Below are positions 51,563 through 52,002 of a DNA stretch of 64,000 nt, piece by piece; position 1 is the stretch's first letter, and each line of letters opens with the position of its first letter. This DNA comes from Candidatus Poriferihabitaceae bacterium. Its GTDB lineage: Bacteria; Pseudomonadota; Gammaproteobacteria; Arenicellales; Poriferihabitantaceae. A program made the translations under genes and the position numbers. The stretch is taken from NCBI GenBank assembly GCA_965237485.1, contig CBDEFQ010000006.1, forward strand, positions 273,506 through 337,505, in the 5' to 3' direction. Under the pieces are notes generated by a model. The model did not search any database, was not told the origin of the DNA, and saw nothing but the letters and a program-made list of their open reading frames with translations.

Positions 51563-51632
51563 GCAGAGGTGCCAGAGTGGTCGAATGGGCTTGCCTGGAG
51601 TAAGTGTGTCTTTACGGGCATCGGGGGTTCGA
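51563..51632 (+). pseudogene. truncated tRNA-Ser copy 1
   Basis: It lacks the 3' T-stem and acceptor strand. It has G2C in the acceptor stem and a 2-nt deletion in the anticodon loop (CCTGGAGTAAG versus CCTGGAAAGTAAG). Confidence 0.85.
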
Positions 51633-51736
51633 CAAAATCGTCTGGAACGATTTTACACGAGCAAAGCGAGCCCGAAGGGTGAAACCCAGGAAGGGTTGAA
51701 TAATCCCACCCGCAAGGGGAGGGGTGAGAACACAAC

Positions 51737-51808
51737 GGAGAGGTGCCAGAGTGGTCGAATGGGCTTGCCTGGAAAGTAAGTGTGTCTTTACGGACACCGG
51801 GGGTTCGA
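51737..51808 (+). pseudogene. truncated tRNA-Ser copy 2
   Basis: 72 nt, matching the intact gene except one substitution in the variable arm (GGACACC versus GGGCACC). It lacks the 3' 18 nt. Confidence 0.85.
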
Positions 51809-51912
51809 CAAAATCGTCTGGAACGATTTTGCACGAGCAAAGCGAGCCCGCAGGGTGAGACCCAGGATGGGTTGAATAATCCCGCCCGCAATGGGGGGGG
51901 TGAGAACACAAC

Positions 51913-52002
51913 GGAGAGGTGCCAGAGTGGTCGAATGGGCTTGCCTGGAAAGTAAGTGTGTCTTTACGGGCACCGGGGGTTCGAATCCCCCCCTCTCCGC
52001 CA
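51913..52002 (+). tRNA. tRNA-Ser (anticodon GGA)
   Basis: 90 nt. Acceptor GGAGAGG/CCTCTCC, anticodon stem CTTGC/GTAAG with loop CTGGAAA, long variable arm, T-arm GGGGG-TTCGAAT-CCCCC, and encoded CCA. Confidence 0.93.

Follow-up and report, generated by a model that had tools for sequence, protein, structure and literature searches.

A probable RtT-family repeat array on the 5' side of a tRNA-Ser(GGA) gene in Candidatus Poriferihabitaceae

Why should an intact tRNA-Ser(GGA) gene be preceded by two copies of its own 5' part, each followed by the same structured spacer of 104 nucleotides (nt)? This arrangement occupies positions 51563-52002 of a 64,000-nt stretch (hereafter the window, with positions counted from its first letter) of contig CBDEFQ010000006.1 from a Candidatus Poriferihabitaceae bacterium. 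An earlier note on this DNA had offered two readings, the scar of a lost integrative element or an array analogous to the tyrT repeats of Escherichia coli. We conclude, with good confidence, that the array is a tRNA-linked repeat of the RtT family in an upstream configuration. According to PMC7542023, RtT RNA (gene rttR) corresponds to the 178-bp repeat units at tyrT-tyrV in E. coli (Bosl and Kersten 1991, cited therein), and its function is there still called unknown. RtT RNAs have been reported outside enteric bacteria, in Thioalkalivibrio.

Units, junctions, and divergence of the array

Tandem Repeats Finder delimits the repeat at 51565-51984, with a period of 176, 2.4 copies, 95% matches, and a score of 763. 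Unit alignment and base-by-base comparison place the unit starts at 51563, 51737, and 51913, exactly as first proposed. The sole tRNA detected, by ARAGORN and by Rfam (tRNA model, 56.5 bits), is the Ser(GGA) of the third unit. A 32-nt stretch from the 5' part of this tRNA occurs exactly three times in the 64-kb window (51568, 51742, and 51918; none expected), while its 3' end occurs once, confirming that only the third unit carries a 3' end. An exact-sequence scan of the window found no further tRNA-Ser fragment outside the array. The features are listed below; the bit scores for the modules come from covariance model R1, described in the next section.

51563-51632, + strand: pseudo-tRNA-Ser(GGA) 5' part of unit 1, nt 1-72, ending in GGGGGTTCGA, at the ancestral tRNA position (unit alignment and base-by-base comparison)
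51633-51702, + strand: RtT-type core module, copy 1 (R1, 36.9 bits, E 1.4e-11; alignment with E. coli RtT), consisting of the P1 hairpin (51633-51654, closing pair lost), CGAGCAAAGCGAG (51658-51670), P3 CCCGAAGGG (51671-51679), P4 ACCC-AGGAA-GGGU (51684-51696), and the tail UGAAUA
51703-51736, + strand: restarted tRNA nt 73-81 ATCCCACCC, loop GCAAG, G-rich cap GGGAGGGG, UGAGAAC, and ACAAC; leader of unit 2
51737-51808, + strand: pseudo-tRNA-Ser(GGA) 5' part of unit 2, nt 1-72, with one difference from the intact gene
51809-51878, + strand: RtT-type core module, copy 2 (R1, 37.9 bits, E 6.5e-12), consisting of P1 CAAAAUCGU-CUGGA-ACGAUUUUG (51809-51831), CGAGCAAAGCGAG (51834-51846), P3 CCCGCAGGG (51847-51855), P4 ACCC-AGGAU-GGGU (51860-51872), and the tail UGAAUA
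51879-51912, + strand: restarted tRNA nt 73-81 ATCCCGCCC, loop GCAAU, cap GGGGGGGG, UGAGAAC, and ACAAC; direct 5' leader of the functional tRNA
51913-52002, + strand: intact tRNA-Ser(GGA) with CCA encoded (ARAGORN, Rfam)

In both units the 70-nt module begins directly after GGGGGTTCGA (tRNA nt 72, TTCGA), and the junction is the same. On the 3' side of the module the tRNA sequence restarts for 9 nt (ATCCCACCC in unit 1 and ATCCCGCCC in unit 2, compared with ATCCCgCCC, nt 73-81; 8 of 9 positions match) and then diverges. Because the tRNA sequence restarts after the module, the junction marks an insertion that separated T-loop positions 58 and 59 and is not a simple break. The comparison thus indicates that units 1 and 2 are tRNA copies that were interrupted at this point (gene nt 72/73) and later truncated. 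The T-loop junction after nt 72 described in the earlier note therefore stands, but the break it assumed does not, given that the tRNA resumes for 9 nt beyond the module. Farther along, GGGGGGGG-UGAGAAC (51893-51907) is complementary to CCCGCCC at 51881-51887, such that the cap is predicted to pair with the 3' strand of the T-stem.

The copies have diverged measurably. Relative to the intact gene, unit 1 carries G2C, has lost 2 nt from its anticodon loop, and shows one additional change, in agreement with the decay first noted for it (an acceptor mismatch and the same deletion), while the tRNA part of unit 2 differs from that of unit 3 by a single base. The two spacers differ at 7 of 104 positions, at 6 of which unit 1 has an A, and identity between the tandem units is 94%. 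These differences bear on whether a single tRNA-Ser locus was wrongly expanded during assembly. The genome is probably a metagenome-assembled genome (MAG), as are its closest records, and we found no second assembly of it. Nevertheless, the spacer differences, the 2-nt indel, and several differing tRNA positions run against such an error; a divergence of 6% between copies makes assembly collapse or duplication unlikely, and a matching layout occurs in independent assemblies of other organisms. We consider the chance of an artefact close to negligible.

Relationship of the spacer module to RtT RNA

The evidence for the identity of the spacer begins with its first 22 nt, the P1 hairpin (CAAAATCGT-CTGGA-ACGATTTT; CAAAATCGTCTGGAACGATTTT), which lies at 51633-51654 and 51809-51830 of the window. 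We found this 22-mer, without a mismatch, in more than 120 listed metagenome contigs (L081-L200) from soil, sediment, and sea water with very different GC contents, and among the matches listed it heads the same module of about 70 nt every time. We estimate that a given 22-mer is expected once per ~1.8e13 positions, which excludes a chance occurrence. The order of elements in the metagenome contigs is P1, a variable hairpin P2, GGCCCGAAGGG (P3), P4 with the loop A(N)GGAU, and the tail (G/U)AAUCC. Module counts given below (113 copies with an exact P1 and 111 aligned copies) are of distinct copies among the matches listed. A scan of viral contigs for the P1 22-mer returned no match, and a search of plasmids returned a Klebsiella tRNA operon, one match to tRNA only, and nothing else. 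Our literature search found no paper on the P1 sequence and nothing relevant on tyrT tandem repeats or on rttR with CsrA, ProQ, or Hfq.

The module is connected to RtT RNA (RF00391) in several ways. Two canonical relatives that lie behind tRNA genes and have the same 22-nt P1 (L086 and L158) score 47 bits with RF00391, for which the gathering score is 45 and all four tyrT-tyrV repeats of E. coli reach 133-137 bits. In addition, we built a covariance model, R1, from P2 through P4 of 28 metagenome copies, omitting the P1 22-mer to avoid circularity. Run with filters off, R1 picked out the pair of spacers and nothing else in the 64 kb of the window (37.9 and 36.9 bits, E ~1e-11; next best 7.1 bits). 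In E. coli it recovered each of the four RtT copies at 23-24 bits (E about 5e-8), and in Klebsiella aerogenes it recovered two modules that follow lysV. By direct alignment, the order GGUUCGA-P1-P2-GGCCCGAAGGG-P4-GARUAAUCC is colinear across the window, metagenome, Klebsiella, and E. coli copies. These alignments indicate that the spacer module is homologous to the RtT RNA core, and not just analogous to it; the resemblance to the 178-bp repeats pointed out earlier thus proves stronger than was proposed. Hammerhead-, tmRNA-, and intron-like readings of GAUGAGAAC...GUUCGA were also considered and set aside, as the core motifs did not fit and ARAGORN and Rfam lent no support.

A retained RNA fold, which had been suspected from the positions of the differences between the two spacers, is evident at the level of the family. 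When 111 distinct copies are aligned with R1, pairing holds in 93% of cells, and changes on both sides of a pair account for 230 cells compared to 69.5 in shuffles (0 of 500 shuffles reach 230), figures that lean towards structure because the alignment was fitted to R1. When the structure was slid by 1-3 columns, at most 70% of cells were paired. RNAalifold on a MAFFT alignment missed P4 owing to register shifts; the structure was given by hand and the model-based alignment used. P1 occurs in about 20 compensatory stem variants, with the loop YNGGA kept in nearly all of them.

The likeness to E. coli RtT extends beyond the core order (GGUUCGA, two hairpins, GGCCCGAAGGG, a hairpin, then GARUAAUCC with the 3' strand of the T-stem). 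The tRNA junction lies in the T-loop on both sides, tandem units are co-oriented with the tRNA gene, and a G-rich cap followed by (A)UGAGAAC is complementary to the AUCC/T-stem strand; the cap and (A)UGAGAAC make up a motif that canonical RtT elements conserve at their 5' end and that is also present in the metagenome copies. In contrast, the E. coli units lie downstream of the tRNA and those of the window upstream; in addition, P1 of the window has a different sequence with a GGA loop, P2 is degenerate, and RF00391 gives no score. In the downstream type seen in E. coli, the tRNA is followed by a linker and then by cap-AUGAGAAC and a short stretch of tRNA that terminates in GGUUCGA; the module comes next, and a copy of the 19-nt tRNA 3' end closes the unit. 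In the upstream type, the 5' part of the tRNA runs to the T-loop (or to the D-loop of class II tRNAs) and is followed by the module, with an intact tRNA downstream.

The upstream type is found at six unrelated loci, four with the T-loop junction (L125; L086, tRNA-Gln; L087, tRNA-Ser-GCT; and L127, tRNA-Lys) and two with the D-loop junction (L103 and L108). L125 has two tandem tRNA-Arg units of 230 bp in which both tRNA halves are still kept. In L086 the order is as in the window, namely the module, AUCC plus the T-stem strand, the cap GGCAGGAUG, a short linker, and the tRNA. Of 32 modules that lie within 400 nt of a tRNA, 31 point in the same direction as the tRNA. The upstream configuration is a variant of the known RtT family, whose modules can sit 5' of a tRNA gene and not only 3' of it. 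The conserved part of RtT is a compact covarying module seated exactly in the tRNA T-loop, and its range reaches far beyond the enterobacteria, the closest genome records to the window being sponge-associated MAGs. What might have been a single-organism curiosity becomes a family whose structure and junctions are defined and for which ideas on mobility and protein binding can be put to the test.

Three side observations concern these layouts. D-loop modules sit in 5' fragments of class II tRNAs (GGAGCGGTGGCAGAGTGGTCGA or GGAGAAATGGCCGAGCGGCTGA directly followed by the module) before an intact tRNA-Ser in L103 (3849-3940, - strand), L108 (768-1090, - strand), L130, and L184, and in L103 the tRNA resumes 9 nt past the module. 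The Klebsiella aerogenes locus (L202; LR134122.1, 53985-55454) carries at its positions 690-880 a downstream-type RtT with two modules (P1 = CAAAATTGTCGGGAACAATTTTG) that is unannotated in the record; it lies behind three valU-like genes and lysV, and it is closed by a duplicate of the tRNA-Lys 3' end and a second copy of the terminator. Head-to-head pairs of modules, on opposite strands with one near-palindromic P1 in common, occur in L102 (2143-2306), L148 (3957-4093), and L090 (9456-9586) and recall the doublets of repetitive extragenic palindromic (REP) sequences.

AaHKsRNA22 (RF02902), from Aggregatibacter, also resembles the module. It gives matches below its gathering score of 39.8 in two metagenome contigs (L129 7169-7261, 28 bits; L086 1474-1560, 16.6 bits) but none in the window at E up to 10. 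Judging from these matches, AaHKsRNA22 may be an expressed small RNA of the same module type.

Genomic setting and origin of the array

The closest genomes in the species-level collection, L001 and L002, are Candidatus Poriferihabitaceae MAGs whose HtpX proteins are 86% and 66% identical to that of the window. In both, htpX is followed by one tRNA-Ser(GGA) with neither repeat nor module. Over its first 72 nt the intact tRNA-Ser of the window is 96% identical to the single tRNA-Ser of L001 and 92% identical to that of L002. R1 found no match in 80 htpX loci (~0.8 Mb, L001 and L002 included), and BLAST of the spacer found no further copy in those loci or in the rest of the window. The genes on the 5' side are uvrA, a major facilitator superfamily transporter, ssb, a LigB-family gene, and htpX; on the 3' side an IS21 element with a split istB is followed by sarcosine-oxidase genes. 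Synteny with L001 runs from uvrA through tRNA-Ser and stops at the 3' end of the tRNA. Two further features are needed for the argument.

51493-51521, + strand: promoter-like block TTGCAA-17 nt-TAACCT, 41 nt before unit 1; in L001 it lies 43 nt before the single tRNA-Ser
52366-54489, + strand: IS21-family insertion sequence (IS) element with a full-length istA (516 amino acids) and istB as two overlapping open reading frames (ORFs; 103 and 142 amino acids); context only

Because the block is conserved with L001 at a matching distance from the tRNA start, unit 1 holds the ancestral position and unit 3 the ancestral 3' end. The block is a candidate promoter by its sequence and placement.

Could the array be the scar of an integrative element? 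This reading supposes a tyrosine-integrase island with a crossover in the T-loop, an attP carrying the 5' segment of the tRNA, and subsequent loss of the island. The T-loop is a classical integrase crossover site at tRNA attachment (att) sites. The array shares with att sites of this class a partial tRNA copy bounded in the T-loop and variable DNA beside the tRNA, and the end of synteny with L001 at the tRNA, along with IS and toxin-antitoxin genes after the tRNA across the three genomes, would fit an island. However, such att sites duplicate the 3' part of the tRNA, flank kilobases of DNA, and carry an integrase, whereas the window has a 5' part, a structured module of 70 nt, and no integrase: the ORFs searched between 44.8 and 60 kb yielded IS21 IstA/IstB in Pfam and no phage-type integrase, and none was found downstream of the tRNA in L001 or L002. 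Moreover, what separates the copies is a conserved module that recurs in unrelated bacteria at tRNA genes of many kinds, and after it the tRNA resumes; identical layouts exist elsewhere without islands; the window has no 3' tRNA fragment, the repeats being 5' segments 104 nt apart; and both junctions are identical, as duplication of one unit predicts. The scar proposed in the earlier note is thus not supported, and we reject it as extremely unlikely.

The disturbed DNA after the tRNA had been taken as compatible with a lost island. The disturbance itself is there: synteny is lost in all three genomes beyond the 3' end of tRNA-Ser (from 52003 in the window, 7045 in L001, and 7109 in L002), where L001 has a BrnT/CopG-type toxin-antitoxin pair and an IS6-type transposase, L002 has IS1595- and IS630-type transposases, and the window has IS21, which, judging from its split istB, is probably frameshifted and inactive. 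Nevertheless, this is ordinary variability of a tRNA flank and is superfluous for explaining the array. On the other side, the LigB-family (extradiol dioxygenase-like) gene at 49725-50522 lies between ssb and htpX, and in L001 ssb directly precedes htpX.

In a second rival reading, the tRNA 5' part was simply duplicated in tandem on the spot, together with arbitrary intergenic DNA, the spacer having neither ancestry nor constraint of its own. The tandem structure and 94% identity fit such an event, and growth from one unit to two is simplest by unequal crossing-over. We therefore keep duplication as the amplification step. For the origin of the spacer it is contradicted, as the spacer has homologues in E. 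coli RtT and in a widespread family with covarying helices and is absent from the orthologous intergenic DNA of the relatives; as a full explanation we judge it very unlikely.

If the array is an RtT-family repeat, its history would begin with a module-bearing pseudo-copy arising beside the tRNA-Ser gene. The gene could have been duplicated first and the module inserted into one of the two copies, a route that L125 suggests, or a fragment joining the tRNA 5' part to the module could have entered by single-crossover recombination within the common 5' segment. The 176-bp unit would then have gone from one copy to two by unequal crossing-over, and unit 1 would have decayed after the duplication. 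In the RNA, the 9-nt T-stem 3' strand that follows the module would fold back on the G-rich cap, with UGAGAAC after it. Since the only promoter-like conserved block lies before unit 1 and none lies within the array, transcription probably yields both pseudo-units as a structured leader of about 350 nt, by way of which tRNA-Ser(GGA) is expressed in this genome. Cleavage by RNase P at 51913 would release the tRNA, and the structured modules would be left as by-product RNAs, as is reported for the rtT RNA of E. coli.

Several points weigh against the RtT-family reading of the array. RF00391 gave no match to 51000-52600 even at E up to 10 and none to the whole window at the gathering threshold; in the array region Rfam reports the tRNA alone, the remaining weak matches being noise. 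From the 5' part the E. coli unit has just a short piece, running from the variable arm to the T-loop, and it keeps all 19 nt of the 3' end with CCA, its defining feature. The window units have tRNA nt 1-72 but, on the 3' side, no more than 9 nt and no CCA. P1, P3 (CCCGMAGGG), and P4 are intact in the window modules, but P2 is degenerate and unpaired, and folding of single spacers on the + strand is not better than shuffles (z about -1.9). On the - strand, z is -4.0 and -2.3; we left that fold aside because the orientation of the family follows the tRNA. A consensus promoter scan passed no promoter, neither the upstream block nor any site within the array.

Possible mobility of the module, and its GGA loops

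Does the module belong to tRNA genes at all? One reading of the wider family is that it is a selfish mobile module that inserts after ..GA at exposed sites (T-loops, D-loops, and start codons) and is kept where it is harmless, without a cellular function. The contexts of the 113 distinct exact-P1 copies listed comprise 30 that are T-loop-like (..TTCGA), 4 that are D-loop-like (..GGYYGA), 27 after start codons, and 39 others. Mobility is also suggested by the presence of the module in the window and its absence from the two nearest genomes, by the head-to-head pairs with one common P1, and by strain-level gain and loss of RtT in Erwinia, as reported in PMC7542023. Against this, we identified no transposase or other mobilising gene and saw no target-site duplication, viral contigs gave no match, and plasmids gave almost none; furthermore, the strong conservation of an AT-rich P1 in genomes of 67% GC, together with the GGA loops, points to a constraint beyond mobility. 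A selfish module is a real possibility to which we give somewhat less than an even chance.

Other small structured repeats dispersed through genomes are comparable in part. Repetitive extragenic palindromic sequences and bacterial interspersed mosaic elements (REP/BIME), miniature inverted-repeat transposable elements (MITEs), and Rickettsia palindromic elements are likewise short hairpin-rich units that occur in many contexts, in tandem or head-to-head pairs, and in frame within coding sequences. In a manner that is not typical of these families, the module is associated with tRNA loops and start codons, has a near-constant orientation to the tRNA, and keeps one P1 sequence across very different GC backgrounds. 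We know of no cognate transposase for it.

The start-codon copies lie in soil contigs with a flanking GC content of ~0.67, and a Shine-Dalgarno-like motif lies upstream in 19 of 27. TGA is preceded by A in 34 cases, by G in 6, and by T in 1, which resembles start-codon usage. In these copies the module, lying in frame, supplies the first 25-35 residues (MTKSSGTILDG...) as an N-terminal extension of unrelated enzymes, among them a thiamine pyrophosphate enzyme, isocitrate lyase, MurG, an EpmA-like protein, and arginase; the Pfam domains of the extended enzymes begin at residues 26-36, at profile positions 1-10. Contigs with such copies include L084, L093-L095, L117, L120, L121, L123, L129, L133, L134, L137, L140, L168, L173, L180, and L193. 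The copies sometimes form two or three tandem 72-nt units and, by our reading, all three forward frames are open. An AUG within the P4 loop was considered as the true start of the soil genes and dropped because it was not general.

The loops of the hairpins suggest a different role, in which the module is a protein-binding cassette: two GGA loops would bind a CsrA/RsmA dimer, tRNA-driven arrays would act as decoys, and start-codon copies would place genes under CsrA control. P4 has a loop with GGA in 99 of 111 distinct copies (shuffle mean 32), and P1 loops read YNGGA in nearly all variants. AT-rich versions of P4 read AUACAGGAUGUAU, which agrees with the consensus for CsrA from systematic evolution of ligands by exponential enrichment, RUACARGGAUGU. 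In the window, the P1 loop is CUGGA in both copies (51642-51646 and 51818-51822), and the P4 loop is AGGAU in copy 2 (51864-51868) and AGGAA in copy 1, such that copy 2 presents both CUGGA and AGGAU. In addition, csrA lies directly 5' of module-bearing tRNA-Ser(GCT) operons at five distinct loci. That adjacency, however, probably reflects ancestral csrA-serV synteny in Gammaproteobacteria. Moreover, GCA or GAA stands in place of the GGA loops in E. coli RtT, the 64-kb window contains no csrA, and GGA loops could suit other partners. We hold the CsrA/RsmA-binding role to be doubtful.

Joining the two ideas, we speculate, as an equally doubtful proposition, that the RtT core is a pan-bacterial mobile RNA cassette of ~70 nt that settles after ..GA in T- and D-loops and in frame after start codons and whose GGA hairpins bind a CsrA/RsmA-type regulator. 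If so, arrays driven by tRNA promoters, such as that of the window, would be growth-rate-coupled decoys, start-codon copies would wire genes into the regulon, and the 35-year-old rtT RNA would acquire a function. The design resembles that of the CsrB/RsmZ decoys and TwoAYGGAY RNA (clan CL00106), in which tandem hairpin loops present (A/N)GGA(U), but the resemblance is one of design only: no model matched significantly, CsrC giving 7.8 bits at E 5.

We additionally recorded the loci at which csrA accompanies tRNA-Ser(GCT), in some cases with tRNA-Arg: L087 (734-898), L092 (2000-2170), L110 (11754-11930, the same as L152), L130 (362-538), and L184 (702-866). Adjacency to csrA is over-represented among the tRNA-linked module loci. 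L110, a marine contig, also carries a TwoAYGGAY RNA (RF01731, 52.7 bits) at 3188-3294 on the - strand, a separate RNA about 140 nt from a module copy at 3432-3476.

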